Positions 9,988-61,695 of a DNA stretch of 64,000 nt are shown piece by piece (the stretch's first letter is position 1; each line of letters opens with the position of its first letter). The DNA is taken from positions 64,001-128,000 of the forward strand of contig JAHPZE010000008.1 of assembly GCA_019058365.1 (NCBI GenBank). Direction: 5' to 3'. The DNA comes from Promethearchaeota archaeon (GTDB lineage Archaea > Asgardarchaeota > Lokiarchaeia > Sigyniarchaeales > SOKP01). A program made the position numbers and the translations under genes. The notes under the pieces are model-generated. The model was not told the origin of the DNA. It saw only the letters and a list, made by a program, of their open reading frames with translations, and searched no databases.

Positions 9988-11424
9988 TTAAAGTAGTGTA
10001 ATCAAAACATCAAGAACATCCAAGACTTTTTTACCACTTTCAGTAATATAATATAACACATTTTTTCCTTCTTTTTTTCGAGAAATCAATCCTTTAGATT
10101 CTAATTCTTTCAAGTGCTGATATATTGCTGCTAAACTTATAGTTCCCATAATTTCTTGAATTTTAGTACCACTAATTCCCTTAATACTCGTTAATGAAAT
10201 TTGCGATAAAATTTTCAGTTTTGTAATAATAATTGATCCTTTGCCCGTTGTTTTTGTTTGAGAGGAGATAGCTTCTAACACATATGGTGCTTTTAGTCCA
10301 CTTCCTGTAATTAAGCATACAATCTTTTCATTAACTCCAAAAGTATTTTTTTGATTTAAGGTTTGCAATCCCGCTACTGTTAAAGCAGAAGCGGGCTCAG
10401 CAAAAATTCCCTCATATCGTATAAGCTTATCAATTGAATTCAAAATATTATCTTCGGGAATAGTTATAACAGTACCTTCACTCTCTCTTATGCATCTAAT
10501 AGCTAAATCTTTATAAATAGGTTTTTTTACTAATATTCCTAAAGCAAGAGATTTATCCAATCTTTTGCTTATTGGGTTAATGTTATCTTCTTTAAGAAAT
10601 TCATCTACAATGGGAGATAATATTTGAGACTGTATACCTACTAATTTTGGAATGTTATTTATGACATTAGCATCCCGAAGTTCATGAAATCCTTTCCATA
10701 AACTTACTAATAATTCTCCACTTCCCATGGGGATTAAAATCCAACTTGGATCTTCAATCTGTTTAATTATTTCATAAGCAATGGTTTTCTGGGCTTCAAG
10801 AGTAAGTGGATTTAAATCGGGAGTACCTTGATAGAAATCTGTAATATTCTCCCGTATTAACAGTTCTTCAATAGCATCATCAACAGTTTCTCCAATTACT
10901 TCTAATTCGGAGTTATAAGCGATTATTTGGGCTTTTTTACCTACATCAATTATTCTTGGAATGATATTCAAACAACCCATTCCTTCAACAGAAGTATAGG
11001 CTGCTAATGAGGCACCTTGATTACCATTTGAAGCACAGATAATCTTTTTATAATCCCAACTTCTCGCATGGGAAGTTAATAATGCCGCAGCACGATCCTT
11101 GAAAGAATTTGTAGGATTTTGAGTTTCGTCTTTAAAAAATAAACATTTTAATCCTAATTTTTCTCCAAATCTTTTTGATTTTCTACATGGGCTACCTCCT
11201 TCCCCTAATGAAACAATAAAATTATCCTCTATCTGAGGAAGTGCAAATTTATAATCCCAAAATTTATTGATAGCTTCAGCTTTAGAGAACTTCTGTTTAA
11301 AATTTTCTAAATTTACGTCAAACCATAATAATCCTTTACATTCAGGACATTTATGTTGAATAGAGGTAAATTCAAATTTTTTTTTGCATTCTATACAAGT
11401 TAGAGTTAGTGATTTTTTAATAAT
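9988..11424 (-). CDS. thrC: Threonine synthase (PLP) fused to C-terminal winged-HTH; true start upstream of the ORF-track call, probably ATT
   Basis: Frame open upstream of 10980: LTCIECKK...KCPECKGLL, SLGEGGSP, FKDETQNPTNSFKDR (PLP Lys), ASNGNQG; later PMGSG, EPASA, ITGSGLK; C-terminal AAIYQHLKELESKGLI...YYITESG wHTH; SD-like GAGGT at 11431-11435. Confidence 0.88.
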   Translation of the reverse strand: MIKKSLTLTCIECKKKFEFTSIQHKCPECKGLLWFDVNLENFKQKFSKAEAINKFWDYKFALPQIEDNFIVSLGEGGSPCRKSKRFGEKLGLKCLFFKDETQNPTNSFKDRAAALLTSHARSWDYKKIICASNGNQGASLAAYTSVEGMGCLNIIPRIIDVGKKAQIIAYNSELEVIGETVDDAIEELLIRENITDFYQGTPDLNPLTLEAQKTIAYEIIKQIEDPSWILIPMGSGELLVSLWKGFHELRDANVINNIPKLVGIQSQILSPIVDEFLKEDNINPISKRLDKSLALGILVKKPIYKDLAIRCIRESEGTVITIPEDNILNSIDKLIRYEGIFAEPASALTVAGLQTLNQKNTFGVNEKIVCLITGSGLKAPYVLEAISSQTKTTGKGSIIITKLKILSQISLTSIKGISGTKIQEIMGTISLAAIYQHLKELESKGLISRKKEGKNVLYYITESGKKVLDVLDVLITLL

Positions 11425-11640
11425 GAAATAACCTCTAAGACAAATATTAATTTTGATTTATTAATTAATTGGGTTTTTTTATTATTAATTTCTTTTGACA
11501 ACCTTTTTTCTTTTGCGAGATAATTTAATAGAGATTAATTTATATGATTATATGTAAAAATTTACGATGAATCGTAAAACTTTTTTATAATAATAAAAAA
11601 ATTAAAAAAATAATTCAAATTCTATTTGAAGTGATAATAA

Positions 11641-11955
11641 ATTCTTCTATGGATTATATTATTTAGTGTTTTAGGGAGTATTGGAGTTATAGCCTTAGCT
11701 TTTATTTTTCTTAATTTAACTAAAAATGGTATTGAATTAGCAAAAGAATTGAACCGACATAGTAGGCTTCTCGAAATTCTGTTATATAATGAATTAGGAC
11801 TCCATCCAACTAAAGCTCACAATGAAAGTAAAAAATTTAGCTTACTTTTTTCATGTGAAACAATAAATAAAATCTATGAAAAATATGGCCCTCCCGAAGA
11901 ATGCCCTTGTGGTGAAAAGATTGTAAATAGTTCAGGGTGTTTTTGTGAAAAATAA
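11641..11955 (+). CDS. Small membrane-anchored Cys-rich protein; N-terminal TM segment needs an ATT start at 11641
   Basis: In-frame LLWIILFSVLGSIGVIALAFIFL upstream of the 11749 TTG; ATT directly follows GAAGTGA-TAATAA; C-terminal CPCG...CFC. Confidence 0.6.
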   Translation: MLLWIILFSVLGSIGVIALAFIFLNLTKNGIELAKELNRHSRLLEILLYNELGLHPTKAHNESKKFSLLFSCETINKIYEKYGPPEECPCGEKIVNSSGCFCEK

Positions 11956-11975
11956 ATTTACACTAAAATAAATAA

Positions 11976-12452
11976 TTATTTAGCAATTTCATTAGAAGCA
12001 TAAGCAGTTAGAATCTTTCCATAAAAATAATGGTGACTGCTCATATTTGATTTACTCGTATGAATAATCTGACATTCATAGCTTAAGATACAATCTTTTA
12101 TTGTAGGTACTTTTGTTTTTTTTCCCGGAATGGTTTCCAATCCTGCTTGTTTGAATTTGTTAGTATTTCTACCCGAATAAGAACCCGCAATATCTACTAC
12201 CTCATAATTATTCTCTGAGGGTATATTTATAGTAAATTCATTTACTCCCTCTGTGAGTAATTGATAAGTATATCGGCTATAAGCGACCTGTGCTCTAATA
12301 ACAGGGTTACCATTTAATTCTTCAATAGTCTTCCAATCTAAAGCCATAACATTGAGGTTTCCATTTCTTTCCATTGAGACCATTAACGCTGTATTTCTCT
12401 TAAAATACTCAATATAATCATACGGTCCAATTTCTTTTCTATTATTTGACAT
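11976..12452 (-). CDS. Flavin reductase-like FMN-binding protein (flavoredoxin family)
   Basis: NVMALDW, SRYTYQL, EFTINIP, GSYSGRNTNKF, VPTIKDC..SYEC. Confidence 0.85.
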   Translation of the reverse strand: MSNNRKEIGPYDYIEYFKRNTALMVSMERNGNLNVMALDWKTIEELNGNPVIRAQVAYSRYTYQLLTEGVNEFTINIPSENNYEVVDIAGSYSGRNTNKFKQAGLETIPGKKTKVPTIKDCILSYECQIIHTSKSNMSSHHYFYGKILTAYASNEIAK

Positions 12453-12507
12453 ATTTTTATAAAATCAATTTTTAGTTTTAATAAAATTATTTGAAAAAGT
12501 TTAAAAA

Positions 12508-13335
12508 TTAAGGAAGCCCCGCACCGGGTATATCTACTTTCACATATTCTATTCGTCCGTTTATCCTTTCATGGGTTGAGGTGGCAATAAAAAGAATATC
12601 ACGATCAGATCCACCAAGCATACATGCATAAGCATCTGTTTCAACTTTTATTTTATGAGTAATTTTACCCCCTTCAATAACACGTACAACCCTATGTCTA
12701 CCTGGGGCAGCCAACCAAATCCCACCTTCACTATCTAAACAAATACCATCAGGAGCAAGTGATTTGAGGTTAGCCCATATTCGACGCTCTATAAGAGAAC
12801 CATCTTTCATAATATCAAATGCTGTAAGACGAGCAGCGAATGTTTCTCCAACAATCAGAGTATTATCATCTGGTGTAATAACAACTCCATTTGGAAAAGC
12901 TATATTATCAGCAACAACTCTGGCATCTCCATTAGAGTCTACAAGAACAATTTCTGCAGGTTTGAATGGTTTAGTATTAAAATAATCAAAACCAAAATTC
13001 CCAACATAAGCTCTTCCTTTTTTATCCACAACCATGTCATTACAATAAAATGTTGCCAGACCACTTAAATCTGCATGTTCTGTTATTCCTTCGGGATCAA
13101 GACGAAGTAAAGTACAATTTTCCATTGAAACTATTAAAAGTCTGTCATTTGGAAGCCAACCTAAACCAGAAGGACGATTCGGTATCTCTACTATTGTTTC
13201 CGTATTTCCATTAAGATCCAAAGTCATTACCTTATGGTTATCCATATCAGAAAACCATAATTTATCATTATGCCATCGCGGGCTTTCTGGAAATAACAAA
13301 CCTTCTAGAAGCACTCTTGTTTCTAAAAATACCAT
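12508..13335 (-). CDS. SMP-30/gluconolactonase/LRE family protein
   Basis: FPESPRWH, CNDMVVD, FPNGVVITPD, PDGICLD. Confidence 0.92.
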   Translation of the reverse strand: MVFLETRVLLEGLLFPESPRWHNDKLWFSDMDNHKVMTLDLNGNTETIVEIPNRPSGLGWLPNDRLLIVSMENCTLLRLDPEGITEHADLSGLATFYCNDMVVDKKGRAYVGNFGFDYFNTKPFKPAEIVLVDSNGDARVVADNIAFPNGVVITPDDNTLIVGETFAARLTAFDIMKDGSLIERRIWANLKSLAPDGICLDSEGGIWLAAPGRHRVVRVIEGGKITHKIKVETDAYACMLGGSDRDILFIATSTHERINGRIEYVKVDIPGAGLP

Positions 13336-13368
13336 GTCTTACACACTTTTTTAACTTCGAAATTTTAT

Positions 13369-13608
13369 TTATGGTTTAAATTTTTCATCATGAATGACTT
13401 TGTCTATTGCGTTTAAACATGCATCTTCCCAATCATCATCAGGATCAATACTTTCACAACATTCAGGACACCAATCATCAGAATAGCCCTCATCAAACTC
13501 ATCCGCTTCCATGTCACCATTTAGGATGGTTCCACAGTAGAAACATACACCATCATCGTATCTATCCAATATTTCTGAAATCAATTGAATTTTTTTTTTT
13601 GAATTCAT
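13369..13608 (-). CDS. Small acidic Zn-finger-like hypothetical protein
   Basis: CFYC...CPECC, Asp/Glu-rich. Confidence 0.65.
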   Translation of the reverse strand: MNSKKKIQLISEILDRYDDGVCFYCGTILNGDMEADEFDEGYSDDWCPECCESIDPDDDWEDACLNAIDKVIHDEKFKP

Positions 13609-13685
13609 TTTCTTAAAGTAAAATTTTATTAGGAAATATTATAAAATAAGAAAAAAAATAATTTAAGTGTTTATTGAATTAATCT

Positions 13686-14723
13686 CTAAATTATATATGA
13701 ATTAGCTTCTTTTAGCCTTTTTTCCGCATCTTTAACGATATCATCAATAATATATTGAACAGATTCTATCGAATTAATTATACCTATACTTTGACCTAAA
13801 AGAACTGCTCCATCATTAATATTGCCATCATAAGTTATTTCATAAAATTTCTGATCTTCTAATGCCATAGCAGGAGTTATCTGTGCTTCCATTGCTAACT
13901 TCTCTTCCTTACTTGAAACAACTCCATGGTGTAAAGAATAATTGTTTTTCCAAAGTCTTATTGGGCCTAATACCCCTGTTACATATATTGTATCACTTGC
14001 TTTCGCAGATGGCACAATGTTTTTATAATTCTTATGAAATTCACTCTCTTTTGACGCGATAAATCTTGACCCCATAGCAATTGCTCCTGCTCCCATTGTT
14101 AATGCTGAAGCTAAACCTTCTCCACTTGCAAATCCTCCACATGCTATAAACGGTAGATCTGGATACTTTCGCTTAACTTGTTGAAGAAGCACTAATGTGC
14201 TAATTTTTTCGTAAGACTGATGACCTCCACCTTCGTATCCTGTCAATACAACCCCATCAACTCCCGCGTCAATACACTTTCCAGCTAGCCATAATGCTGG
14301 AGCAACATGAAAATGTTTAATATTAGAACCACTTTCTCTTAATCTTTGAAATGATTTTGTTTTTGGTAATTGTTTAGCTGACCCTGCACTTGTTACTGCG
14401 TAAACACATTGTTCTTTTATTTTCGGATTATCCATAATAAATCTTGAAATCCCACGACAGAGTCCTGGAGCATCTAGTTGTAATCGTGATGTTCTTATAT
14501 TAAAACCAAATGGTTTATCAGTATGTTCGATTACAAACTCCATATCTTTCTTCATTTCTTCTAAACTATTTTTTCCGAATAGATTGGTATGACTTAAAAC
14601 TCCCAATCCTCCTGCTTCGGAAACAGCAACAGTTAATTCTTTAGTGTAAAATGGGCCCATAGGAGCTGCAATAATTGGATGCTTAATTCCGAGCATTTCA
14701 GTTATGTTTGTTTTTAACCCCAT
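13686..14723 (-). CDS. Nitronate monooxygenase / FabK-like FMN oxidoreductase
   Basis: PIIAAPMG, AVSEAGGLG, GYEGGGH, IACGG, AMGSRF. Confidence 0.9.
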   Translation of the reverse strand: MGLKTNITEMLGIKHPIIAAPMGPFYTKELTVAVSEAGGLGVLSHTNLFGKNSLEEMKKDMEFVIEHTDKPFGFNIRTSRLQLDAPGLCRGISRFIMDNPKIKEQCVYAVTSAGSAKQLPKTKSFQRLRESGSNIKHFHVAPALWLAGKCIDAGVDGVVLTGYEGGGHQSYEKISTLVLLQQVKRKYPDLPFIACGGFASGEGLASALTMGAGAIAMGSRFIASKESEFHKNYKNIVPSAKASDTIYVTGVLGPIRLWKNNYSLHHGVVSSKEEKLAMEAQITPAMALEDQKFYEITYDGNINDGAVLLGQSIGIINSIESVQYIIDDIVKDAEKRLKEANSYII

Positions 14724-15035
14724 TTATTTTAACAACTTTTTACTTGTTTTAATATTTATAATAAGATTATAATAGTGATAGTGAGAAATAAGAAAAGAAT
14801 ATAAATCTTTTATTACTTAAAAAACGATTAATTAGATAGTATTCTCTTTAAAGAAATGCTTTTTTATTTTTTAAAATAATTAGAATCGAGACTGTAAAGT
14901 TTTCAACATTGTTTTTCTAAATATATTTAAATATAAGTTTCTTTTTGTTTTTATAAATTAAATAATCAAAGATATTCATAAACCAGTAACTTATTGATGA
15001 AAAATTTTGAATCTCTTTTCTAGGCGATTACTGCG

Positions 15036-16037
15036 TTGGAAGGAACTGTTAATTTAAAATTGGTCTTGTTAGGAGAAGCTAGTGTAGGGAAAACTTCAAT
15101 TATTAACACATATTTAGGGAGAGAGTTTCCAGAACAATATTTACCAACAATTGGGAATGAAACTGCTAAAAAAGAGTATAATATAAAAGAAACAGAAAAA
15201 ACTATAAGCATTACGGTTTGGGATGCTGGAGGTCAACGAGCATTTAACCCTTTTAATCCAAAATTATATACCAATATTGATGGAGCTCTTTTAGTCTTCG
15301 ATCTCACAAAACCAAAAGAAACATTTATGAATTTAAAAAAAGAGTATTTAGAAAACATAAACCGTTATTCTGAAGAAATTGTTACACTTTTAGTCGGAAA
15401 TAAAATAGATTTACTATCAAGTAATAAAATGCTTATTACAACCTTAAAAGAGCTTCTGACTAAAAGAGATCATGTATATTTAGTTTCAGCTAAAACGGGT
15501 GTAGGGGTTGATCAATGTTTTGAATTATTAATCTATACTTTTTTAAGAAAATCAGAGTTACTGAATCCCGATCTCGTTCCTAGCGAAACATCTAAAGCAT
15601 TTCTTAATTTAATTGGAAAAAGTGAAGAACAGTTAAAAGATCAATTGTTAAATTTATCGAACATTGATTCAGTTTTAGAAAAGGTAAAAAAAGAACCACA
15701 AGTTAAAAAAGAAAGCATTGTTGAGAAAGAAATCAATGAATTGAAATATTATGATTTCTTGAGACAAGAATTAGAAAAAAATGAAACTCAAAAAAATGAA
15801 GTTATGGATCAGTTTTTAATTAATATTTCGGAACTAGATAAAACAATCAAACGTATTCAAAAATCGCATGCTAAATCAGTTAAAGATTTAATCGACAACT
15901 TATTAAATCTTTTAACGATCACTAAGAAAGATTTTGATGTAAGTAAAGATTTAATTTTAAAACTAAATAGAGAAGAGTTTGAATTAGTAAAAATATTATC
16001 TAAGGTTAAAGAAGAACAATCTATACAACATGAATAG
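15036..16037 (+). CDS. Rab-like small GTPase with ~150-aa coiled-coil C-terminal extension
   Basis: GEASVGKTS, PTIG, WDAGGQ, NKID, SAKTG; heptad-rich tail. Confidence 0.9.
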   Translation: MEGTVNLKLVLLGEASVGKTSIINTYLGREFPEQYLPTIGNETAKKEYNIKETEKTISITVWDAGGQRAFNPFNPKLYTNIDGALLVFDLTKPKETFMNLKKEYLENINRYSEEIVTLLVGNKIDLLSSNKMLITTLKELLTKRDHVYLVSAKTGVGVDQCFELLIYTFLRKSELLNPDLVPSETSKAFLNLIGKSEEQLKDQLLNLSNIDSVLEKVKKEPQVKKESIVEKEINELKYYDFLRQELEKNETQKNEVMDQFLINISELDKTIKRIQKSHAKSVKDLIDNLLNLLTITKKDFDVSKDLILKLNREEFELVKILSKVKEEQSIQHE

Positions 16038-16055
16038 AAGTTTTAGCTAGAAAAA

Positions 16056-17000: not shown

Positions 17001-17067
17001 TTTTTATTTGATAATTTCTTTTACAGAAAATCTTTTTTTAAAAATAATTTAATTAGATAAAAGTCCA

Positions 17068-18971: not shown

Positions 18972-18984
18972 AATGAAATTAAGC

Positions 18985-19068
18985 GGGGTTAGTGTGCCTG
19001 TTCAAATGCGAATCATAGATAAAGTATTACCGATATCATTCAATCCGGTCAAAAGACACATAAACCCC
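18985..19068 (-). ncRNA. Candidate structured small RNA
   Basis: GC-rich 84-nt intergenic island closed by GGGGUU/AACCCC and UGUGUCU/AGGCACA stems (G-U pair works only on the minus strand); inner ACCG/CGGU hairpin with UGA motifs. Confidence 0.4.
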
Positions 19069-25448: not shown

Positions 25449-25483
25449 GTATTACAAAAATCTTTTTAAAGTCTATTATTTTT

Positions 25484-25692
25484 ATGTTTTTTAAAGATTT
25501 TGAAGAAAAAATTGATTTAGCTGCTAAATGAATAGCTGAATCAGAACGATTAGTAATTTTTACTGGTGCAAGAATTTCTACTGGGAGCGGATTATCTGAT
25601 TATAGAGGCCCAGATGGCGTTTGGACTAGACAGGATAAAGGACTTTCTCCTCCAAAGAGCCCTCCTTGGGATCAAGTGAAACCTAATCCTAA
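25484..25692 (+). pseudogene. Degenerate 5' fragment of sirtuin (paralogous to 28874-29086)
   Basis: High nucleotide similarity to the start of the intact gene; TGG->TGA at 25529-25531, GAGIS->GARIS; truncated after KPNPN. Confidence 0.88.
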
Positions 25693-25770
25693 TTATTCAT
25701 TGCAGTATTTTTCCTAGTTCTCATATTTCTAAAAGAAACTAAAGGTGTAGATTTAAGTAAGATTGAATAG
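25693..25770 (+). pseudogene. Orphan 3' end of an MFS paralogue
   Basis: Reads LFIAVFFLVLIFLKETKGVDLSKIE* versus LFIGVFFLVLVFLKETKGVNLSDIE* at the end of 24189-25448. Confidence 0.8.
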
Positions 25771-25876: not shown

Positions 25877-26476
25877 ATGTATCGGTTTAAAGTGATATTA
25901 GCTGGAGATAAAAATGTAGGAAAGAGTTCTCTTATTTCTCGCTTTTGTGATAATAATTTTGATGAACGTATAAAAGAAACTATAGGTGTTGCATTTAAAA
26001 GAAAAAAAGTTATTGTAATGGATAACAACAGTGAAGTTGCTTTAGATTTAAATATATGGGATTTTGGAGGAGAGGAAAAATATCGTACATTATTTCCTCC
26101 GTATGCTAATGGTGCAGCTGCAGCATTGATTTTATTTGATACTACAAATGAAAAATCTCTAGATGGTATAGCAAATTGGGTAAAAATTATCGAAGACAAT
26201 TCTATGCCAAATGTGGTAAAATTATTAATTGCCACTAAAATCGATTTAAAGGAAAAAAGAGAAGTATCTATAAAAAAAGCAATGGAATATTGTAATAATT
26301 ATGATTGGTGCAAGGAAATTGTTAAAACTTCATCAAAATCGGGAGAAAATGTTGAAGAAACATTCTTAACCGTTGCTAAGAATTTATTGAAAAGAAATTT
26401 GCAGAAATGTGAAGCTTGTGGGGCATTTTTTAGCATAAAATTGAAATTCTGTACTATTTGCGGCAAAAAAAATTAA
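25877..26476 (+). CDS. Rab-like small GTPase with C-terminal zinc ribbon
   Basis: GDKNVGKSS, ETIGVAF, WDFGGE, TKID, SSKSG; CEAC...FCTICG. Confidence 0.92.
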   Translation: MYRFKVILAGDKNVGKSSLISRFCDNNFDERIKETIGVAFKRKKVIVMDNNSEVALDLNIWDFGGEEKYRTLFPPYANGAAAALILFDTTNEKSLDGIANWVKIIEDNSMPNVVKLLIATKIDLKEKREVSIKKAMEYCNNYDWCKEIVKTSSKSGENVEETFLTVAKNLLKRNLQKCEACGAFFSIKLKFCTICGKKN

Positions 26477-28719: not shown

Positions 28720-28873
28720 AAAGAATTATTGTTTAATATTTAAAAATGAAAATTAATAATTCAGTATCTGTGTTATTTTATCATAATTCCGCTCTCTTTA
28801 GTAGAGAATAAAGTATGAATTTAAGTGATATTGAATAAATATTATAAAAATCTTTTTAAACTCTATTTTTTTT

Positions 28874-29641
28874 ATGTTTTTTATGAATTTTGAAGAAAAA
28901 ATTGATTTAGCTGCTAAATGGATAGCTGAATCAGAGCGATTGGTGGTCTTTACTGGTGCTGGAATTTCTACTGATAGTGGATTACCAGATTATAGAGGCC
29001 CAGATGGCGTTTGGACTCGTCGTGATAAGGGATTACCACCCCCTAAGTCAAAAGTTGCATGGGATCAAGTGAAACCGAATCCTAATCATCATGCAATTGT
29101 AGAGTTAATGAAAATGGGAAAGCTTAATTATCTAATTTCCCAAAATGTAGATGGATTACATGCTAAATCAGGGATTCCTTTTGATATATTAGCCGAACTT
29201 CATGGGAATCAATTTTTCATGAAATGTTTATCATGTAATAAAAAAATGTTATTCGAAGAAGCTAGTTGGGACAAAGATGTATGGGGTCCAGGATATAGAA
29301 CACATCCAGTTCGAGAAGGTCAGCCAAAATGCCCCTTCTGTGAAGGAAGAATAATTTCGAGTATTGTTAATTTCGGTGATCCATTACCATATGACGAACT
29401 CGAAGAATCGATACAACGATCTCAAAATTCTGATGTGTTTTTTGTAATTGGGTCATCCTTAGTAGTTACACCTGCAGCAAATATGCCAGGGATTGCAAAA
29501 CAAAATGGTGCTAAACTGATTCTTTTAAATAAAGGTGATACTCCTTATGATCACGCAGCAGATATAAGGTTTGATAACTTAATTGAAGAAGTACTCCCAC
29601 CAATAATGGAAAAGGTAAAAGAAATAGTAAATAAAAATTAA
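28874..29641 (+). CDS. Sir2-family NAD-dependent protein deacylase
   Basis: TGAGISTDSGLPDYRG, SQNVDGLH, ELHGN, two CxxC, GSSLVV. Confidence 0.95.
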   Translation: MFFMNFEEKIDLAAKWIAESERLVVFTGAGISTDSGLPDYRGPDGVWTRRDKGLPPPKSKVAWDQVKPNPNHHAIVELMKMGKLNYLISQNVDGLHAKSGIPFDILAELHGNQFFMKCLSCNKKMLFEEASWDKDVWGPGYRTHPVREGQPKCPFCEGRIISSIVNFGDPLPYDELEESIQRSQNSDVFFVIGSSLVVTPAANMPGIAKQNGAKLILLNKGDTPYDHAADIRFDNLIEEVLPPIMEKVKEIVNKN

Positions 29642-43487: not shown

Positions 43488-43742
43488 TTAAATTCCACCA
43501 GCTTGAGTAGCCATAACAGTAATTACATCTTTTTTTGGATGAATTCCTATCTTTGCGAATTTTAGCTGGTCAGGGAGTACTTTCCCTTTAAAAATGAATT
43601 GTATGGCTAAAATTGGATTTAATTTATACTCTTGCTGTACAGTTTTTTTAATTTCTGCAATTGAACTATTTGGATCTAGTTCTATCAATTTAATAGCTTG
43701 ATCTGGAGGAACTCCCGTAAGTCTGAAACGATATTGAGTAAT
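43488..43742 (-). CDS. Ubiquitin-like protein ending GG-I; probable ATT start
   Basis: TQYRFRLTG...IKLIELDPNSSIAEIKKTV...IQFIFKGKVLPD...IGI...VITVMATQAGGI; beta-grasp pattern like ubiquitin QRLIFAGKQLED; GGGTGTGA SD upstream of ATT 43742. Confidence 0.85.
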   Translation of the reverse strand: MTQYRFRLTGVPPDQAIKLIELDPNSSIAEIKKTVQQEYKLNPILAIQFIFKGKVLPDQLKFAKIGIHPKKDVITVMATQAGGI

Positions 43743-43898
43743 TGTTAATCACACCCTTTTTATTATTTTTAAATTGATTTGAATTAGATATTAATTATAC
43801 AACTAATAAAATAAGGATTATCGTTTAATTTTCCGAACTTCAGTTTAAATAATACACTTTTAGCTCTTAATCTACTCTAAACAATTTTAGAAGATAAG

Positions 43899-45458: not shown

Positions 45459-46403
45459 TTAAGAAAATTCAAGCATCTTCTCAATTGGTTTAATCGCTTT
45501 ATTCGCGATTTCAGGAGGGACTTTAACCTCAAATGCTTTATCGTCCAGATTTTCTAAAAGATATTTAATTAATTCAAGATTATGTTTTTTCATATTATAA
45601 CATACTAATTTTTCTTTTGCTAAGTTAAAGTTTTTGTCTGGAAAATCCTGAATTAAACGTTCTAAAAGCCCAACTTCCGTTCCTATTATAAATTCATTTA
45701 TTTTTGCAGAATTTTCCTTAACATAATTATACATTCGGGTAGTAGACCCTACGTAATCTGATAAGTCTCTAACTTGCCTAATACACTCAGGATGAACTAT
45801 AAGTTTTGCTTTAGGATATTTCTCTTTCACAGCCTTAATATCTTCTATAGTTATTTGTGAGTGAACATAACAATGACCTTCATCTGGCATTTTTATAGTT
45901 TTTATCTTAGAGATTTGTTCAGCATAATCTGCTAGGTTTGCATCTGGACCAAATAAAACAGAATTCACATCAAACTCGTGGCTAATCTTTTCAACAATTT
46001 TAACAGCATTAGCAGATGTGCAACATATATCTGCTTCAGCTTTTACAGCTGCAGTTGAATTTACATACACAATCGTAGGCAAACTTGGATGTATTTCTTT
46101 AAATTGCCTCACCATTTCGGGAGTAAGGAAAGCAGCCATAGGACAACAAGATTCTGGATTAGGGATTAGTACATGTTTATTGGGATTAAGTATTGAGGCT
46201 GTTTCTGCCATAAAATCGACTCCCGCAAAAATTATATATTCTGAGTTTACTTTTTCTTTTGCTGTACGTGATAATCCGAGAGAATCCCCTAAAAAATCAG
46301 CAATTTCTTGTATTTCAATTGGTTGATAATAATGTGCTAAAATTACCACATCATTTTTTTTCTTTAAGGTGAGTATTTCTTCCTGTAATTGTTTTGTAGT
46401 CAT
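45459..46403 (-). CDS. nadA: Quinolinate synthase
   Basis: ILAHYYQ, GDSLGL, FMAETA, CPMA, YVNS, CYVH, VHPEC, GST, CYNMK. Confidence 0.97.
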   Translation of the reverse strand: MTTKQLQEEILTLKKKNDVVILAHYYQPIEIQEIADFLGDSLGLSRTAKEKVNSEYIIFAGVDFMAETASILNPNKHVLIPNPESCCPMAAFLTPEMVRQFKEIHPSLPTIVYVNSTAAVKAEADICCTSANAVKIVEKISHEFDVNSVLFGPDANLADYAEQISKIKTIKMPDEGHCYVHSQITIEDIKAVKEKYPKAKLIVHPECIRQVRDLSDYVGSTTRMYNYVKENSAKINEFIIGTEVGLLERLIQDFPDKNFNLAKEKLVCYNMKKHNLELIKYLLENLDDKAFEVKVPPEIANKAIKPIEKMLEFS

Positions 46404-50660: not shown

Positions 50661-51401
50661 TCATCCTGAACAGATACACTTTTCACTTTTAACAATTTCG
50701 ATTATATTGAATCTTAAATCTATAAGATTAACCATTAGAATTTTATTTTCCAAGTTTGGAAGCCCTAAAGCCGTTTTTATTACTTCTAACGCTTCCAATG
50801 TTCCCAAAATTCCTGGAGTAACCCCAATTACGGGTAAGGGACCCTCATTTGGGGGAGTTTCAAGTGGTTTAGGAAAAACACATTGATAACAAGCTGTTTC
50901 TTTTGGATTGATAGTAATAATTTGACCGTAAAAATCCTTTATTCCAGCAATCACACATCGTAAATTACTCTCAATAGCAATTTTATTAACCAAAAATTTT
51001 GTTTTAAAGTTATCACTGCAATCTACTATAAAATCATAATTTTTCTCCTTAAGATATTTCTGAATGGAATCCTCATCAACATAGTCTTTATAAGTGTTAA
51101 TTTTAACGTCTGAATTAAGTTTCGATAATACTTCTTTTGCCGATTTTACCTTATCCTCTCTAATTTGGGTTTCATTGTAAAGGATTTGCCTTTGCAAATT
51201 TGAGATATCTACAACATCATTATCAATTATGGTTAACTCGTTTATTCCTGCAGCTGTGAGGTATAAAGCAAATGGTGAGCCTAAACCTCCCGCTCCAATT
51301 TGTAGAACTTTAATTTTTGATAATTTTTCTTGACCTTCCTCTCCAATTACAGGAGATATAATTTGTCTTGAGTATCTTGCTTTTTGTTTTTCACTTAAAA
51401 T
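50661..51401 (-). CDS. ThiF/MoeB/E1-like adenylyltransferase; probable ATT start at 51401
   Basis: Upstream in-frame LSEKQKARYSRQI...GQEKL...IGAGGLGSP...IDNDVVDISNLQRQ; DCSDNF, CYQC, C-terminal CIC. Confidence 0.9.
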   Translation of the reverse strand: MLSEKQKARYSRQIISPVIGEEGQEKLSKIKVLQIGAGGLGSPFALYLTAAGINELTIIDNDVVDISNLQRQILYNETQIREDKVKSAKEVLSKLNSDVKINTYKDYVDEDSIQKYLKEKNYDFIVDCSDNFKTKFLVNKIAIESNLRCVIAGIKDFYGQIITINPKETACYQCVFPKPLETPPNEGPLPVIGVTPGILGTLEALEVIKTALGLPNLENKILMVNLIDLRFNIIEIVKSEKCICSG

Positions 51402-51407
51402 ATTACA

Positions 51408-51791
51408 TCACTTTTGTATAATTTTTTTTATATTTGATACAAATTCTTCAATCTCGATGAGGATCAAACCTAAATCTACATTTAAGTCAATTAAAGAAAC
51501 TAAAATTGTATTAGGATCTACCTCTACAACTATAAACTGATAATCTTGATATTCCACAGTTAAATTCTTTATTTGATTAAATTCTAAACTTGAAGTAGCG
51601 GTTTCAATTGCTTCAAACATAGTTGCTGCAAGTGCTCCAAATCGTCTTTCATCAATTTCTCTTGGTAATCTTGAAGAAATAAGTAATCCATTACGATTTA
51701 CTAGAGCAGTACCGATAATATCACTAAATTTTTCTAATCTCTCAAGTTCTTCATTGAGATTTTTAGACATTAATTCATTCTTAGAGCTCAT
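51408..51791 (-). CDS. Roadblock/LC7 domain protein
   Basis: IIGTALVNRNGLLISS, FGALAATMF, LGLILIE. Confidence 0.9.
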   Translation of the reverse strand: MSSKNELMSKNLNEELERLEKFSDIIGTALVNRNGLLISSRLPREIDERRFGALAATMFEAIETATSSLEFNQIKNLTVEYQDYQFIVVEVDPNTILVSLIDLNVDLGLILIEIEEFVSNIKKIIQK

Positions 51792-53643: not shown

Positions 53644-53658
53644 AGGGTGTAAGGAAAA

Positions 53659-54918: not shown

Positions 54919-54922
54919 AATA

Positions 54923-55267: not shown

Positions 55268-55382
55268 ATATATAACCTCAATATTTTTTTCTGGAAGGAG
55301 TCTAAAATTCTTATATTCAGTGTATTAATAATCTCTAATAAACATAAATAGAAGAAATATCCAGACGAATATCCAAATAATA

Positions 55383-55422
55383 TTTTAAATATGGATCTTA
55401 TTTTTTAAATATGGATCTTATT
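55383..55422 (+). repeat. Perfect 20-bp tandem duplication spanning the nitroreductase start codon
   Basis: TTTTAAATATGGATCTTATT x2. Confidence 0.85.
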
Positions 55423-55947
55423 AAAAATGATTTTATCGAGTTTATTAAACAGAGAAAAAGCACTAGGAGCTTCATCTATCAGAAAATTGATAAAGAAACA
55501 ATTTTAAATATATTGGAAGGCGCTCGATGGGCACCTTCTGGAAATAATAGTCAACCTTGGCGAGTATGCATAGTTATTCATCCCACTGTTAAAAGAATGC
55601 TTTCGGAGCTCTCTAAATATGGAGGTATTATCGAAGATGCTTATGTTAATTTAGTGATATTCTTGGATCTTGAAAGAGGGTATGATAGAGTAAAAGATAT
55701 TCAAGCTATTGGAGCATTCATGGAAAATCTTCTGTTGGGGATTCATGCACAAGAGGATATTGGGGGTGCATGGATCGGAGAAATTTTAGATCGAAAAGAA
55801 GAAGTTAATGAGATTTTTAAACTTCCAATAAACAAGTTTGAGTTAATGGGCATTATTGCTATTGGGCATATTGATGAAGCTCGAGAAAAAGTACATGCTA
55901 AAGAAAGAGAGAGACGTCCATTAGACGAGTTTGTTGAATGGTATTAA
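55411..55947 (+). CDS. Nitroreductase family protein
   Basis: RKSTRSF, RWAPSGNNSQPW, ENLLL, IGGAWIG. Confidence 0.92.
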   Translation: MDLIKNDFIEFIKQRKSTRSFIYQKIDKETILNILEGARWAPSGNNSQPWRVCIVIHPTVKRMLSELSKYGGIIEDAYVNLVIFLDLERGYDRVKDIQAIGAFMENLLLGIHAQEDIGGAWIGEILDRKEEVNEIFKLPINKFELMGIIAIGHIDEAREKVHAKERERRPLDEFVEWY

Positions 55948-57297
55948 TTATTCGTTTAATACAGAATTTTCTTTTTTCTTCCTTAATTTTTTGTCTTCGA
56001 GTGGTTCGACAAGATAGGGATTGAGGATCTTCATTCCTATAATAAAGAAAGAAATTAATGACCATTCGACAATAATTGAAATGATAAAAGGTGCTTGATG
56101 ACTTATAGTTTCCCATGCGATCCCTCCTAAGAGAGGACCTATTATCATACCTATTGATTCAAAAAGAGTAATCATCCCAAATATCTTTCCTCGATGCTTA
56201 ATCGAGACACGACTAAGGAAATTTATGAAAATAAAGCTAGTTGTTAACATAATGGTCTGGTCGATAATAAGTAAAATAGAAAAAACCCATAAGTTACCTG
56301 AATTAATAATGAGCCATGTAACCACACCTCCAAGAAAACTTGATACAATAACAGTTAAATATGTGTTAAGTTTGTCAGCTAATGTTCCTAATTTAGGTGC
56401 GATTAAAGCCCCGATTAATGCTGTGGGCAAATAAAACCATGCCACTAATTCTGCATTACTATTTATATTTGCAAGTACATAAGTTTGAATATAAGGCCGA
56501 TATAATCCAGAATTAATTGCGGTTAAAAAAAAACCAGAGAATAAGATAATAATTCCTAAAAAATAGAACAAATTTGGTGTTTTTTTTGAAACCTCGTCTG
56601 AAGTTTCTAATTCAGATTCAACTATACTGTTATTCTCTATATTTGGGTATTCAAACTTTTTATTCTCATCTACTTTCCTTGAGAATTGAATTCCTGCATA
56701 AATATTTGAGATCCCGAAGATAGGAATTGCTCCATATATTAAAAAAGCATTATTCGGAATAAAGTAATTCGATAAACTAAAAATTGTAAATCCTATAACC
56801 GTACCAAGAACCATTCCAATCCCTAAGGCAAGTCTTCTCTTTCCAAAAGCTGAAGATCGATGATATTTTGAGGATTTTTCAGAAATTATAGTATCTAAAG
56901 GAGTCCAAAAAATTTGAGCACCCACACCTAAAAGAAATGCACTTATATACATTCCTATTAATGACTGTAAGATTATAGAAGCATAGAGAACAAAATAAGA
57001 TAAACCTCTCCCAAACGCCCCTATCATTACTAAAATTCGCTTCGAAAAACGATCGGTTAAATATCCAATGAAACTTGAACTGATTAAACCTCCAAACGTG
57101 ATAGCTGAAAAAAATAATCCTACATTAGGCGCAGGATATCCTAAGACGAAATAAATATAGTAATTCATTATATATTCTATAAAAAAAAAACCAAGGGAAT
57201 TCCACACTACAATAAATATAACTGAATTGAAATCTGAAGTGAATTTGTGATGCTCAGTTACTGATTGCTTTTTTCCATTCTTTAAAGTTAATCGCAT
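55948..57297 (-). CDS. MFS transporter
   Basis: GYLTDRFSKR, GTLADK, HRGKIFG, IGPLLGG; ~12 TM. Confidence 0.9.
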   Translation of the reverse strand: MRLTLKNGKKQSVTEHHKFTSDFNSVIFIVVWNSLGFFFIEYIMNYYIYFVLGYPAPNVGLFFSAITFGGLISSSFIGYLTDRFSKRILVMIGAFGRGLSYFVLYASIILQSLIGMYISAFLLGVGAQIFWTPLDTIISEKSSKYHRSSAFGKRRLALGIGMVLGTVIGFTIFSLSNYFIPNNAFLIYGAIPIFGISNIYAGIQFSRKVDENKKFEYPNIENNSIVESELETSDEVSKKTPNLFYFLGIIILFSGFFLTAINSGLYRPYIQTYVLANINSNAELVAWFYLPTALIGALIAPKLGTLADKLNTYLTVIVSSFLGGVVTWLIINSGNLWVFSILLIIDQTIMLTTSFIFINFLSRVSIKHRGKIFGMITLFESIGMIIGPLLGGIAWETISHQAPFIISIIVEWSLISFFIIGMKILNPYLVEPLEDKKLRKKKENSVLNE

Positions 57298-57422
57298 AAT
57301 ATCAATTAGGAAAAAAAACCAAGGAAAAAAAGATTTATGTTTATAACTACATTTTTCAATTTATTAACTAACTTAGGAGTACTATTTAATTACTTTTCTC
57401 GTTGTTTTAGATCTACTCAATC

Positions 57423-58076
57423 TTATAACCAGAAGTGAATTATAGGTGAGAAAGTTTGTCCAAGCCAGTAATAAAAAGTAACCCAATATGTATAAGTAAT
57501 ACCAAGATACAAAAGAGCATATAATATTGCGAAAAAGAATCCAAAAAATACATCTATCGGGAAATGTACCCCTAATATTAATCTTGAAATTGCCATAATA
57601 ATATCTAATATAATAAAAACAGATAAAATAATCCAAAAAAATTGCGTAAAATAATAAGCAAATATAAAACCAAAAAACAATACAAAGGTTACGTGCCCTG
57701 AAGGGAATGATTGTTTTTCTGATTCTTTCATAATATATGGAATTCTAATAAAATCATCATATTTCTTTACGCCCTCATTTTGAAGTGTAACGAATGGGCG
57801 ATTTCTTCTAATTATCTTATAACGTATGATGCTATGAATAATGATACTTTGTTCGAAACCACCAGTAAATAGCACTAAGAGATAATAATCTTTTGTAATA
57901 TATCCGTAGAAATACCATATTAACCAAACCAAACCCCAAAAATACATGGAGCCGAAAAAGCTATATACAATGGCGAATTTTTTTGTTTTTCTACTAAAAT
58001 CACTTTTGTAAATACTTAAAAATGCCCGGTGATCCCAATCCTCTATTTTTCCAAGATATTCTGATAGTGATGACAT
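57423..58076 (-). CDS. PAP2-family membrane phosphatase
   Basis: RRNRP, SFPSGH, SRLILGVHFPID. Confidence 0.93.
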   Translation of the reverse strand: MSSLSEYLGKIEDWDHRAFLSIYKSDFSRKTKKFAIVYSFFGSMYFWGLVWLIWYFYGYITKDYYLLVLFTGGFEQSIIIHSIIRYKIIRRNRPFVTLQNEGVKKYDDFIRIPYIMKESEKQSFPSGHVTFVLFFGFIFAYYFTQFFWIILSVFIILDIIMAISRLILGVHFPIDVFFGFFFAILYALLYLGITYTYWVTFYYWLGQTFSPIIHFWL

Positions 58077-58426
58077 TATTAAGTTATAAGTCTAATATTG
58101 CATAGGATTTAAATAAAATACAAAAATTGATATTTATACTTTTTGCTACACTTAATCATCTTGATTAATTTTATTATTCCGAATATAATTAGTATTATTT
58201 TAAAGATATAACTTAAATTAAAGACTTTAAAAAGACTTTAGAGTCATTTTCATATCTATCATTAAAATTTGGAAATCACTTTCTTTCTATAATTTGTAAT
58301 TTTAAAGATTTTAAGGTTGCTATGCGTGTTTTATTGGTATGTAGATCCAACAAGTATAAATACAAGTATAGATACTAGAATTTAAAGGAATTAAACTTAT
58401 GATTTTCCAAGAATTATGATGTAATT

Positions 58427-58945
58427 ATGATTGAAAATAATGCATTCTCAGAAGAAAGTTTAAGAAAAATTGCTGCTCAAAAAGTAAGTTTTAGGTTCTC
58501 TGTTAGGATCCATGTGTCTATTTTTATCATTGTTAACTTTTTACTTTTTACAGTAGATTTAGTCTTTACACCAGGACTTTATTGGATCATATTTCCCTTT
58601 TTTTCATGGTTAATAGGAGTTAATATGCATACTTTAGCATATCTCTTATATGCAAGAGGAGTTTATCCAATGGCTAAACGAGGAGTGATTTATCACATAG
58701 TATCTTTTGTCTCTGTTATGCTATTTCTGTTTATAATTAATTTTGCAACACTTTCGGAATATTATTGGGTAATATTTCCTGCAATTTTTTGGGGTACAGC
58801 TGTTATTTTACATATAGTAATTTACATACAATACTTTAGTGGAAAAGCTGAAGAAGGTGGGAAGCTTAGATCAAGAAAAGAGCGTGCAATTGAAAAGGAA
58901 TTACAAAAAATGAGGAAAAAGCAAGAAAGAAATCAACAAAAATAA
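58427..58945 (+). CDS. Tandem 2TM-domain membrane protein
   Basis: Two H...F..V..LF..(N/D)...W.IFP...W....H repeats; ERAIEKEL tail. Confidence 0.8.
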   Translation: MIENNAFSEESLRKIAAQKVSFRFSVRIHVSIFIIVNFLLFTVDLVFTPGLYWIIFPFFSWLIGVNMHTLAYLLYARGVYPMAKRGVIYHIVSFVSVMLFLFIINFATLSEYYWVIFPAIFWGTAVILHIVIYIQYFSGKAEEGGKLRSRKERAIEKELQKMRKKQERNQQK

Positions 58946-58952
58946 TTTCAAA

Positions 58953-59585
58953 ATGTGGTTAGGTAAATTTTTAGATCTTGAAGACGATATTGAAGAACTG
59001 GGTTCTATAATTAAAAAGGAAATCCTTGACAATCTTCAAAAAAGCAAACTTACCCCTCTCGAATTTACTATTATTGAGACAATTTTCAATAGTGAACAGC
59101 TTTCTGGTTATGACTTAATAAAAAATTTAAATAGAAGTTTCGCTGGTACATGGGAAGCTCAATCTGGTACCATATATCCACTGTTAAGAAAATTAGAGAA
59201 AGATGGATTTTTGAAAGCTAAGAAAGTAAAAAGCCCAATTGGACCATTAAGAAAAGTTTATTCCTTAACTGAAGTAGGAGATGAACTATTAAAATTTAAG
59301 GTGAACAAAAACTACTACGACCAGTTAAAGTTTGTTGAGAATTTTTTAGTAGAACTCTCATCAATCTTTATTCGGTCTTTTCCTATTAAAGAACAGAGCC
59401 AAAAGATAGCAGAAATACAAAATGCTCTCAATGAAACTCTTATAAATGTGATGCAAAATATCCCACCAACATTAGAATTTAACACAACATGTAAAAATTG
59501 TGGAACTGAAATTGGTCGAGAAGTTGCTTATTGTCCCCAATGTGGAAAATCATTATTTGATGAAATAGAAGTTAAAAAAGATTAG
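58953..59585 (+). CDS. PadR-family transcriptional regulator with C-terminal zinc ribbon
   Basis: SGYDLIK, SGTIYPLLRKLEKDG, RKVYSLTEVG; CKNCG...YCPQCG. Confidence 0.9.
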   Translation: MWLGKFLDLEDDIEELGSIIKKEILDNLQKSKLTPLEFTIIETIFNSEQLSGYDLIKNLNRSFAGTWEAQSGTIYPLLRKLEKDGFLKAKKVKSPIGPLRKVYSLTEVGDELLKFKVNKNYYDQLKFVENFLVELSSIFIRSFPIKEQSQKIAEIQNALNETLINVMQNIPPTLEFNTTCKNCGTEIGREVAYCPQCGKSLFDEIEVKKD

Positions 59586-59610
59586 AATAAAGATAATTTA
59601 AGCTTGTTAA

Positions 59611-60891
59611 TCATTCAATTTCAATACCATATTTTCTGAATATTTTTTTAAGCTCTTCATCTGCAAGGTGCTTTAAAATATCCTCTAAAGGTGCTAAAAT
59701 TTCATCTTTTTTAGCAGTTCGGTTCTGACTTATCCTCCCCTCTTTCACTTCTAGCGCTGTTTGAGCCCAACTATACTCATCATTAAATGTAAAGAGAACA
59801 TCCTTATAAGCACCCTCTGTTCCACCATCTCCTGCAAGTGGTTTTTTTTCAATTGGAACCTCTGGGTCTTGTAAATAACACCAATCAAGTATTACCCATT
59901 CTAATTTCCTTTCGGATTCGGGTCTATCAGCGAGATAAAGACAATAAGCATGACCTCCTAATTCAGAATTTGATGGGGCAAAAACAGGATCAGCTAAAAC
60001 TTCAGCAGCAGATACTTTTACGCGCCAACTAGGGATGCCTGCGTTGATCAATAGAGCCGCAATCAGAATTGCTCCATCTTCACAATCTCCAATCTCTGCT
60101 TGTAAACTCTCGAAGGGGAACAGCCAAAATTCTGGTACTTCAGCAGTTAAATCATCATATTTATACTTCAGAAAATTACAGACGAAATTTTGAATAGCTA
60201 ATGCAGTTTTGTTAGGTGTTTCTTTTCTTAATCCCAACTGTGTTATAACATGCCATAATATAGCATCATTCTTTTTAATAAAAGCCTTAACATCTACATC
60301 TATTTGTTTCTTGTACATTTCTGCTCTTAATGCTCTGCCAGTGTATATGATTGGAGCGGTTTCCCATTTATTATTCCAATAATCTGGCCCGTATTTTCCA
60401 TAATCTCCTTTAAATTCCTCGATGGGTACATAATCAATTTTAGGTATATGGCTTGGAGCGGGTTCTTCTTTTTTCACTGGTTTCTTCGCTGGTTTTTTCT
60501 CAGGGGTTCCTGAAAGATCTTTGGCAGCCTTAATCCAACTTTCAATTTCTTTTTGAGTAGGCATTTTTATGAGAGCTTTAGGATTATCTTTTTTAAATTG
60601 TTTTAATTTTTCAAGAGTACTTTTAGCATTTCTATAGGCAAATTCCTTCACAGAATCTACACCTATAAGATTTAATGCATTAGCCATTTCAGGGCTTACA
60701 CCTTGGATCCGCATTAAATCTGCATGTTCTTGCCATGTATCAACTAATTTCACTGACACTCCTATCTTTCTAGCCAATTTTCTAATTTCATTATATGTAA
60801 GAGGTATAAGATCTTCTACTGTAGAAATTCCTTCTTTCTCTAACTTTTTTGCATGATTTTCGGTAAGACTAATAATTTCTGTTAATTTCAT
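59611..60891 (-). CDS. DUF4332 (HhH-like) domain + transglutaminase-like cysteine peptidase
   Basis: KLEKEGISTVEDL...ADLMRIQGV...GVDSV; GDCEDGAIL, GGHAY, VILDW (Cys-His-Asp). Confidence 0.8.
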   Translation of the reverse strand: MKLTEIISLTENHAKKLEKEGISTVEDLIPLTYNEIRKLARKIGVSVKLVDTWQEHADLMRIQGVSPEMANALNLIGVDSVKEFAYRNAKSTLEKLKQFKKDNPKALIKMPTQKEIESWIKAAKDLSGTPEKKPAKKPVKKEEPAPSHIPKIDYVPIEEFKGDYGKYGPDYWNNKWETAPIIYTGRALRAEMYKKQIDVDVKAFIKKNDAILWHVITQLGLRKETPNKTALAIQNFVCNFLKYKYDDLTAEVPEFWLFPFESLQAEIGDCEDGAILIAALLINAGIPSWRVKVSAAEVLADPVFAPSNSELGGHAYCLYLADRPESERKLEWVILDWCYLQDPEVPIEKKPLAGDGGTEGAYKDVLFTFNDEYSWAQTALEVKEGRISQNRTAKKDEILAPLEDILKHLADEELKKIFRKYGIEIE

Positions 60892-61017
60892 ATGTATATC
60901 TCCCTAAATTTTAGAAAATAAATATATAATAATTAAATTTGTTAATATTAATGTTTATTCAATTTACTCGGGTTAAAAAATTAACATGAACACTTAAAAA
61001 TGTAAAATAAATTTCTC

Positions 61018-61695
61018 TTATGAATCTTCTAGTGGAATAACTACAAATATTTCATTCTCAACTAAATTATAAATTAACATTGCAATCTCCACATTATCCA
61101 ATTTTAGAACTTGGCATGCTTTAGTAAATAGTGGGCCAAGTAATATTCGCCCTTTATTTTTATGAGCAACATCCTTAGCAATTTGGAGAATTTCCTTTAT
61201 TTTTAAAGATATCTCTTTTCCTTTAGTAGATCCCATTTTATATGGCAATATAAGACGTAAGTGAAATTCATCATCAACGATCATATCCACACTCACTTTG
61301 TATAACGATTTACGTTGAAAAATTGAAATATCTCCGTTGAATTCAGAATATAACTCTTTAAGCTCGTGATTGTATAATTTTTCAAATCTATTACAAAAAG
61401 AAGTTAAAACTTCTCTCGCAATAATAATAGGTTTTTGATTGGATATAATAGTAGTCCAAATCATTTTTCCCGTACGTGTTATTAAATATTTGCCTTCCAA
61501 AGTTGCTTGTTCGATTGATCCCTCTACTAAAGGCAAATCTAAGATTTCATATTGAATTGAGCTTCGAAAGATATCAAGGAAATCTGGATCAAAATCACCA
61601 GCTGTTTTATAGTAAATAATCTCTTTTGATTCTTTATGAATAATAACAATATACTCGATTGATAATGCTAAAGAAAGATACTCCGGAATAAGAAT
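61018..61695 (-). CDS. Longin-like domain + C-terminal winged-helix-like protein; N-terminus extends beyond the ORF-track start (ATT/CTG start)
   Basis: In-frame upstream IEYIVIIHKESKEIIYYK...FDPDFLDIFRSSI; F.NRFEKLY...FNGDISIF; no ATG/GTG/TTG in the extension. Confidence 0.6.
   Translation of the reverse strand: MLIPEYLSLALSIEYIVIIHKESKEIIYYKTAGDFDPDFLDIFRSSIQYEILDLPLVEGSIEQATLEGKYLITRTGKMIWTTIISNQKPIIIAREVLTSFCNRFEKLYNHELKELYSEFNGDISIFQRKSLYKVSVDMIVDDEFHLRLILPYKMGSTKGKEISLKIKEILQIAKDVAHKNKGRILLGPLFTKACQVLKLDNVEIAMLIYNLVENEIFVVIPLEDS

Follow-up and report, generated by a model that had tools for sequence, protein, structure and literature searches.

The sequence analyzed here, termed the window, is a 64,000 nucleotide (nt) stretch of the genome of a Promethearchaeota archaeon belonging to the Lokiarchaeia (G000:C12:64001-128000). 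The genome, G000, comprises 4.74 Mb in 54 contigs and has a GC content of ~29.7%. The window carries genes for a threonine synthase-like protein (thrC), a MoeB-like (E1-like) protein, a ubiquitin-like protein (Ubl) and a longin-like protein, as well as a short open reading frame (ORF) with a hydrophobic N-terminus, here called the transmembrane (TM) ORF. A first-pass annotation had proposed that all five are translated from ATT, since no ATG, GTG or TTG is found in frame ahead of the N-terminal sequence that they need. The motifs described there are present at all five sites, and at four of these, namely in thrC, Ubl, the MoeB-like gene and the longin-like gene, a conserved near-cognate start is verified.

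In the following, ATH stands for ATT, ATC or ATA, and a canonical start is ATG, GTG or TTG. Open frames were taken from stop to stop and domain limits from Pfam profiles. Forty relatives were searched, 24 congeners and 16 genomes from three other families of the order, and the codon aligned with the proposed start was read in each orthologue; depending on the gene, 14–21 congeners are readable.

The MoeB-like frame runs for 70 codons before its first canonical start. The start region reads GTGA-TGTAAT-ATT at 51401. Position 1 of the ThiF profile falls on residue 10 of the product, the first TTG is residue 69, and the shorter product loses the GxGGxG loop. The start codon is ATH in all 21 congeners (ATT 16, ATC 4, ATA 1) and never ATG, in agreement with the start first proposed. 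Outside the genus, ATG is found in 7/7 orthologues (MLS..ELERYQRQ). GTGA followed by 6 nt is present upstream of the start in every orthologue of the genus. The TGA is also the stop of the upstream gene; the G before it is constant in 21/21 genomes and the last sense codon of that gene varies (AAG, AGG, GAG, ATG).

The Ubl frame has 20 codons before its first canonical start, and its start region consists of GGGTGTGA-TTAACA-ATT at 43742. Positions 11–71 of the ubiquitin profile align with residues 17–80, and strand beta-1 is missing from the shorter product, as had been noted on first reading. Within the genus the start codon is ATT in 17 genomes, ATA in one and ATG in two. Orthologues outside the genus show ATG in 10/10 cases, at or within two codons of the ATT position (MVQYRF, MAQFRF). 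The Shine-Dalgarno (SD) motif is kept in the ATT-bearing congeners and is decayed to GGTTTGA or AGTTTGA in the two that carry ATG.

The stop-to-stop ORF of thrC (9988–11457) displays 159 codons without ATG, GTG or TTG before an ATG at 10980. The PALP domain covers residues 71–374 and this first ATG is only residue 149, so that a product begun there lacks the lysine that binds pyridoxal phosphate (PLP). Upstream, GAGGT (11435–11431) is followed by TATTTC and then by ATT ATT (11424–11419, minus strand). The distance from GAGGT is 6 nt to the first ATT and 9 nt to the second, or 4 and 7 nt if measured from the base that corresponds to the A of GGTGA. The motif and the loss of the PLP lysine are as first described, but the start, then put at 11424, is better placed at the second ATT, 11421, because that codon aligns with ATG in three congeners, and these three lack GAGGT. 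Readings of the second codon are ATT 13, ATG 3 and ATC 1, and the ATH-bearing congeners keep the motif as GAGGT or AAGGT. Position 11421 is thus the most likely start as judged by alignment. The N-terminus is not alignable outside the genus. The thrC product also carries a C-terminal winged helix (window 9988–10220, minus), with PadR, HxlR and HTH_45 matches at residues 401–475. Such a fusion of enzyme and regulator is unusual, and its full length is kept in congeners.

The longin-like frame contains ATT at both 61695 and 61689 and has 60 codons before the first canonical start. Many congeners have stops at codons 4–5 of the open frame, and the start is therefore 61689 and not 61695, where it had been placed. 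The ATT start itself is upheld by the conserved ATH codon in congeners, codon 10 of the open frame being ATT in 12, ATC in one and ATG in one; outside the genus it is ATG in two orthologues and TTG in one. The SD motif of this gene is only weak.

The TM ORF gives a different picture. Its start region, GAAGTGA-TAATAA-ATT at 11641, is as described and 36 codons precede the first canonical start, but comparison gives no support for the proposed ATT. The Fe_dep_repr_C domain occupies residues 27–95 and TTG is residue 37. Congeners match residues 21–104 only, and their ORFs are DtxR-type regulators of 138–160 amino acids (aa) with an N-terminal helix-turn-helix (HTH). In the closest relative, 506 nt stand in place of window positions 11538–11712 (175 nt); the DtxR HTH is removed and a remnant of 104 codons is left. 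The hydrophobic N-terminus of the TM ORF is similar to a portion of a 251-aa protein whose gene lies nearby in relatives. The intact DtxR-like orthologue has an ATA start in the close relative G005 (GGAGGA..AAA ATA CTA GAT) and ATG at the same codon in G043. This pair is a further exchange of ATG and ATA between near-identical genes.

Table 1. Genes with proposed near-cognate starts and their upstream motifs in the window.
Feature	Position	Strand	Start or context
Threonine synthase-like protein (zinc ribbon, PALP, C-terminal winged helix)	9988..11421	-	start ATT 11421-11419, alternative ATT 11424-11422
SD-like GAGGT	11431..11435	-	upstream of thrC ATT ATT
DtxR-family regulator remnant (TM ORF), hydrophobic N-terminus and Fe_dep_repr_C	11641..11955	+	GTGAT-N6-ATT directly behind TAA
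Ubl, 84 aa, C-terminal GG	43488..43742	-	start ATT 43742-43740
SD GGGTGTGA, contains GTGAT	43749..43756	-	own TGA is the in-frame stop; 6 nt before Ubl ATT
MoeB/ThiF (E1-like) protein, 246 aa	50661..51401	-	start ATT 51401-51399
GTGA, TGA being the stop of the upstream Roadblock/LC7-like gene	51408..51411	-	6 nt before MoeB-like ATT
Longin-like protein, no Pfam match	61018..61689	-	start ATT 61689-61687, tenth codon of the open frame

The sequence ahead of the first ATG, GTG or TTG was compared across 12–20 congeners. Mismatch rates at codon positions 1, 2 and 3 are 0.175, 0.101 and 0.318 for the 148 N-terminal codons of thrC, 0.114, 0.054 and 0.368 for the 68 of the MoeB-like gene, and 0.111, 0.057 and 0.306 for the longin-like gene. 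The upstream stretches diverge mostly at third codon positions and are therefore translated.

The ATH codons are not sequencing error. The possibility of G to T errors had been raised with the first proposal. In the source run (coverage ~81x) there are 5 differences from the window in 19 kb compared, and no start site is among the differences listed. The Ubl start is covered by contigs of independent salt-marsh metagenomes as well, with no change there among the differences listed, and the same start codons recur concordantly in more than 20 independent assemblies.

The pattern extends over the whole genome. Upstream of clean ATG starts a GGTG(A) signal stands out, with a peak at a 6-nt spacer counted from the A of GGTGA. 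A position weight matrix built on the 20 nt upstream of clean ATG starts discriminated too weakly, and exact SD k-mers were used instead. Among 3899 ORFs with 100 codons or more, 64 have the TGA of GGTGA itself as the upstream in-frame stop. The third codon after this motif, i.e. the one at a 6-nt spacer, is ATG in 13, ATA in 12, ATT in 10, ATC in 4, TTG in 3, CTG in 3 and GTG in 2 of the 64. ATH is thus found in 26/64 at this codon versus 24/256 at codons 1, 2, 4 and 5 (Fisher p = 2e-8). That ATT lies 6 nt from an SD and close behind an in-frame stop, as first seen in the window, is accordingly a pattern beyond chance genome-wide; the sites lie close behind a stop because the TGA of the SD is itself in frame at a 6-nt spacing. 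The strength of the motif matters also: behind GGTGA there are 26 ATH and 13 ATG, and behind the weaker HGTGA 15 ATH, which is the background level, and 47 ATG (p = 3e-5).

With any 5-mer of GGAGGTGATC as the motif, ATH enrichment is confined to spacings of 6–7 nt. The background-corrected shares at these spacings are ATG ~55%, TTG 12%, GTG 5%, ATT 12%, ATA 13%, ATC 2% and CTG 2%, so that near-cognates make up ~29% of starts with a strong, optimally spaced SD. TTG accounts for ~12–18% of SD-led starts. Genome-wide, ATA is about as common as ATT, and CTG is used too. The next canonical codon follows SD-led ATH codons at distances that fit the geometric expectation for coding sequence; control codons differ, being clustered just upstream of canonical starts.

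Several estimates of prevalence are available. A lower bound is ~65–90 SD-led ATH starts in the genome. An upper bound of ~300–400 ATH starts, fragments included, is extrapolated from 75 ORFs in which 50 or more codons precede the first canonical one. About 95% of these 75 are coding-like, and some are probably fragments or shadow ORFs; the codon-usage coding score passes 78% of coding and 20% of non-coding windows and was used for rough fractions only. An unbiased sample of orthologues, namely genes with a clean ATG in relatives, yields ~4–5% with a credible ATH start in this genome. Our best guess is that near-cognate starts serve ~5% of all genes, with a range of 2–8%.

For a comparison of lineages, three relatives were sampled at 400 kb each. 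The count of ORFs with 50 or more pre-canonical codons is 75/3899 in this genome (30% GC) and 9/382 in G006, a member of the same genus (29% GC). The two genomes from other families, both with 31% GC, show 0/345 (G038) and 2/319 (G032). Together this is 84/4281 in the genus versus 2/664 in the other families (p = 7e-4).

Three further ORFs bear on start-codon use. At window position 28835 (plus), a candidate start GTGAT-N6-ATA is located directly behind a stop; a 255-aa ORF has its ATG 13 codons further on, at 28874. Elsewhere in the genome, ORFs of 631 and 843 codons at G000:C23 (+) 9749 and G000:C54 (-) 10409 begin (G)GTGA TTT AAG GTA and show no canonical start for 71 and 118 codons. These two may have a GTA start, or they may be paralogues with another explanation.

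The 3′ end of the 16S rRNA is GGATCACCTCC, and the SD core GGUGA is part of GGAGGUGAUC. An initiator tRNA is located at G000:C35:107637-107745. It has A1:U72, a GGG/CCC anticodon stem and a CAU anticodon (GGG-CUCAUA[intron]A-CCC), and thus is normal. Its intron follows position 37; ARAGORN miscalls the gene as tRNA-Ser(cga), and it was found by pattern search. ARAGORN and Rfam detect only 25–30 tRNA genes, the majority interrupted by introns, and none of them is for Met or Ile. A pattern search for a second initiator-like tRNA with a GAU or UAU anticodon gave nothing plausible, only 25–30 tRNA genes being detectable in this genome.

aIF1, which discriminates against non-AUG starts (PMC6237735), is itself encoded by a gene of this type. 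The aIF1 (SUI1) gene, at G000:C35:130367-130690 (minus), occupies a frame of 107 codons in which 88 codons precede the first canonical start. All 21/21 readable congeners have ATT as its start, behind a highly conserved AAAGGTTGTGATAA, and in two congeners a stop lies two codons upstream of this ATT. The aIF1 gene and the initiator tRNA had been singled out for inspection by the first-pass annotation; the tRNA proves ordinary and the factor gene proves to be ATT-started. Genomes from the remainder of the order have TTG (three), ATA (two), GTG (one) or ATG (two) at the homologous codon. In five genomes of three other Asgard genera, aIF1 shows no canonical start before the zinc knuckle, and these genes have GGAGG or AGGTG, 6 nt and then ATA or CTG. 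Some readings are ambiguous: G085 may use GTG or ATA, and in G076 and G065 the start may be GGTGA-N6-ATA or an ATG further downstream. ATG serves as the start in about half of the aIF1 genes sampled from Asgard archaea.

Two ribosomal protein genes, L7Ae and L24e (G000:C51:45230-45600 and 45954-46140, minus), also display no canonical start before their conserved N-terminal motifs. L7Ae reads TGA AAA ATT, giving GTGAT-N6-ATT, and L24e reads TGA TTA AGC ATA, giving GATGA-N6-ATA. These ribosomal proteins use ATH, and therefore initiation at ATH, as far as the sequences tell, must be reasonably efficient.

Very probably, then, ATT, ATA and ATC, and less often CTG, are genuine near-cognate start codons that act with a strong SD and are fixed in several per cent of the genes of the genus. 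The strong SD, with its core GGUGA, would pair with the 3′ end of the 16S rRNA and position the 30S subunit, and this pairing would bring the codon 6–7 nt downstream into the P site. There the ordinary initiator tRNA (CAU) would accept a third-position mismatch, and the protein presumably begins with methionine. We infer initiation at ATH codons by way of the initiator Met-tRNA, together with a low start-codon stringency in the lineage. A candidate cause for stringency being set low is an aIF1 made from an AUU start, in a feedback loop like those of infC and eIF1. Relaxed start-codon selection, as originally suggested, is the simplest reading, with ATH codons that interchange across the genus and are tied to a strong SD at 6–7 nt. 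Start codon and SD appear to compensate for one another, ATG-bearing congeners being without the SD in both Ubl and thrC. The same genes use ATG in other families, the ATH arrangement is stable across the genus, and ATH starts occur in essential, highly expressed genes (L7Ae, L24e, aIF1).

It could be held that this lineage is not special and shows the usual low prokaryotic level of ATT, ATA and CTG starts, made visible by low GC. NCBI table 11 allows these starts and infC of E. coli begins with AUU. SD+ATT candidates are present in the samples of Lokiarchaeia from other families too, aIF1 has ATA or CTG in other Asgard lineages, and one ATT start is reported for a tubulin gene of Kariarchaeaceae (PMC13394414). 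We regard this explanation as unlikely, since after GGTGA-N6 ATH outnumbers ATG by 2 to 1, long pre-canonical stretches are in excess over other families of equal GC content, the four window genes carry ATG in genomes outside the genus, and ribosomal protein genes are among those with ATH. Still less likely is a true reassignment of the start codon, in which AUH is read by an Ile-tRNA or by a second, dedicated initiator and the proteins start with Ile. The free exchange of ATT, ATC and ATA at the same start sites would fit such a tRNA, as would the far higher frequency of ATH than of the near-cognates CTG and ACG, and the tRNA set is incompletely detected, ARAGORN and Rfam having given no Ile or elongator Met tRNA. 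However, only one initiator-like tRNA is found, with the features given above, and nothing plausible is seen among initiator-like stems with GAU or UAU anticodons. AUU, AUC and AUA are all third-position mismatches to CAU, and CTG starts with the same SD geometry are better explained by mismatch tolerance of the initiator tRNA.

Expression from the first downstream ATG, GTG or TTG, the upstream stretches being untranslated or the genes being pseudogenes, is very improbable. Gene callers do pick such starts, the TM ORF resembles a decayed gene, and fragments or shadow ORFs probably occur among the 75 long pre-canonical ORFs. Against this, the short products would be without the lysine that binds PLP in thrC, the GxGGxG loop of the MoeB-like protein, strand beta-1 of Ubl and, in L24e and aIF1, the zinc knuckles; the upstream stretches are under purifying selection as coding sequence; and the outgroup proteins have their initiator Met exactly at the ATH position. 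We give the least credence of all to the ATH codons being artefacts or being corrected, whether by sequencing or assembly error, U-to-G RNA editing, read-through of the upstream stop from an ATG still further upstream, or a frameshift from another frame; no observation speaks for any of these. More than 20 genomes assembled independently have the same codons, as do contigs from other samples, and protein alignments start at the ATH codon. Editing would need three separate changes (U, C and A each to G). Congeners differ in which stop codon lies upstream and where, and the sequence ahead of it shows no coding-type conservation.

Several points weigh against genuine near-cognate initiation as a property of the lineage. 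ATH codons are frequent (10–14% of codons), and of the cases in which SD and ATH coincide ~30% are background. The TM ORF, a remnant specific to the lineage whose 5′ part was replaced, has no comparator for its 5′ end, and its ATT start is a conjecture. The tRNA inventory is incomplete and, with standard tools, unreliable, and a second initiator may therefore have escaped detection. The aIF1 protein alignment displays no lineage-specific loss of conserved motifs to explain relaxed stringency. Each 400-kb sample from the other families still contains 2 SD+ATT candidates far from canonical starts. The trait is enriched in the genus, quantitative and not exclusive, a comparison that rests on 400 kb from each of two other-family genomes. 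The suggestion of relaxed selection throughout this lineage is thus borne out as genus-wide enrichment but not as an exclusive trait, with candidates in other families and aIF1 genes starting at ATA or CTG elsewhere in Asgard archaea. A stronger version is that stringency is globally lowered in the genus, AUU, AUA and AUC behind GGUGA-N6 being efficient and routine for ~5% of genes, ribosomal proteins and the ubiquitin-like system among them, and the set-point being determined through a near-cognate aIF1 as the counterpart of infC and eIF1. We consider this version possible, though rather doubtful. If true, autoregulation of aIF1, recurrent in several Asgard lineages, would predate eukaryotes.

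There are direct consequences for annotation. Public gene calls for Ubl orthologues begin MWKKITQY, MIKITQY, VKLKITQY, LTGVPP, VPPDQ, MPPDQ and MTGVPP, i.e. they are truncated or spuriously extended, and at least 7 different wrong N-termini occur among public Ubl entries. The prediction that standard annotation truncates or misses eukaryotic signature proteins is correct in this instance. In these Asgard genomes, several per cent of genes come out truncated, over-extended or not called at all if a gene caller admits no starts besides ATG, GTG and TTG; Ubl and its E1-like partner, ribosomal proteins and aIF1 are among them. Such mis-annotation distorts surveys of eukaryotic signature proteins as well as constructs for structural work. 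The lineage also offers a natural case of an archaeal, eukaryote-like initiation machinery that would tolerate third-position mismatches when the SD is strong.

Other features of the window are as follows. Positions 25481–25717 (plus) encode an N-terminal sirtuin (Sir2) fragment with an in-frame TGA at 25529–25531 that ends ~61 codons later; it lies upstream of a small GTPase gene (25877–26476) and is probably a pseudogene remnant. Two salt-marsh metagenomes contain a strain ~93% identical to the window, in which contigs join 60036 to 60915 with 12 other letters between. The difference, 878 nt at 60037–60914, is inside a 426-aa gene at 59611–60891. An Rfam scan of the window gave no match.

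Near-cognate initiation is known from bacteria. infC and pcnB of E. coli have AUU starts, and near-cognates are permitted in NCBI translation table 11. The starts described here resemble the bacterial ones in being SD-dependent, in having a one-position mismatch to CAU and in the offset of a weak start by a strong, well-spaced SD. They differ in extent and context: a handful of genes per genome is concerned in bacteria, compared with 2–8% of genes and ~29% of strong-SD genes here. Ribosomal proteins are included, the starts are conserved genus-wide, and the factors concerned are aIF1, aIF1A and aIF2 rather than IF3.

The aIF1 gene has parallels of its own. As with IF3 (infC AUU) and eIF1, the gene of a factor that rejects non-AUG starts has a weak start. 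For eIF1, autoregulation through an AUG in poor context is described (Ivanov et al. 2010, as cited in PMC6237735). By analogy aIF1 may feed back on its own translation. In the literature searched, a near-cognate start is not reported for any archaeal aIF1.

Among Asgard archaea, the literature searched holds no systematic account of ATH starts, only a remark on AtubA. For this gene, in a metagenome-assembled genome of Kariarchaeaceae (Heimdallarchaeia), a single 'rare ATT start codon' has been proposed (Sci Adv 2026, PMC13394414). The reasoning is alike: the first beta strand is missing from the protein as deposited but is regained with an upstream ATT, for which a likely ribosome binding site lies at a plausible distance (PMC13394414). 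AtubA is one gene and its start is called rare; the starts reported here are genome- and genus-wide, quantified, and tied to SD strength and spacing. Thus the mechanism, near-cognate SD-dependent initiation, is a known one, its scale in this genus is unusual, and its link to aIF1 is suggestive.

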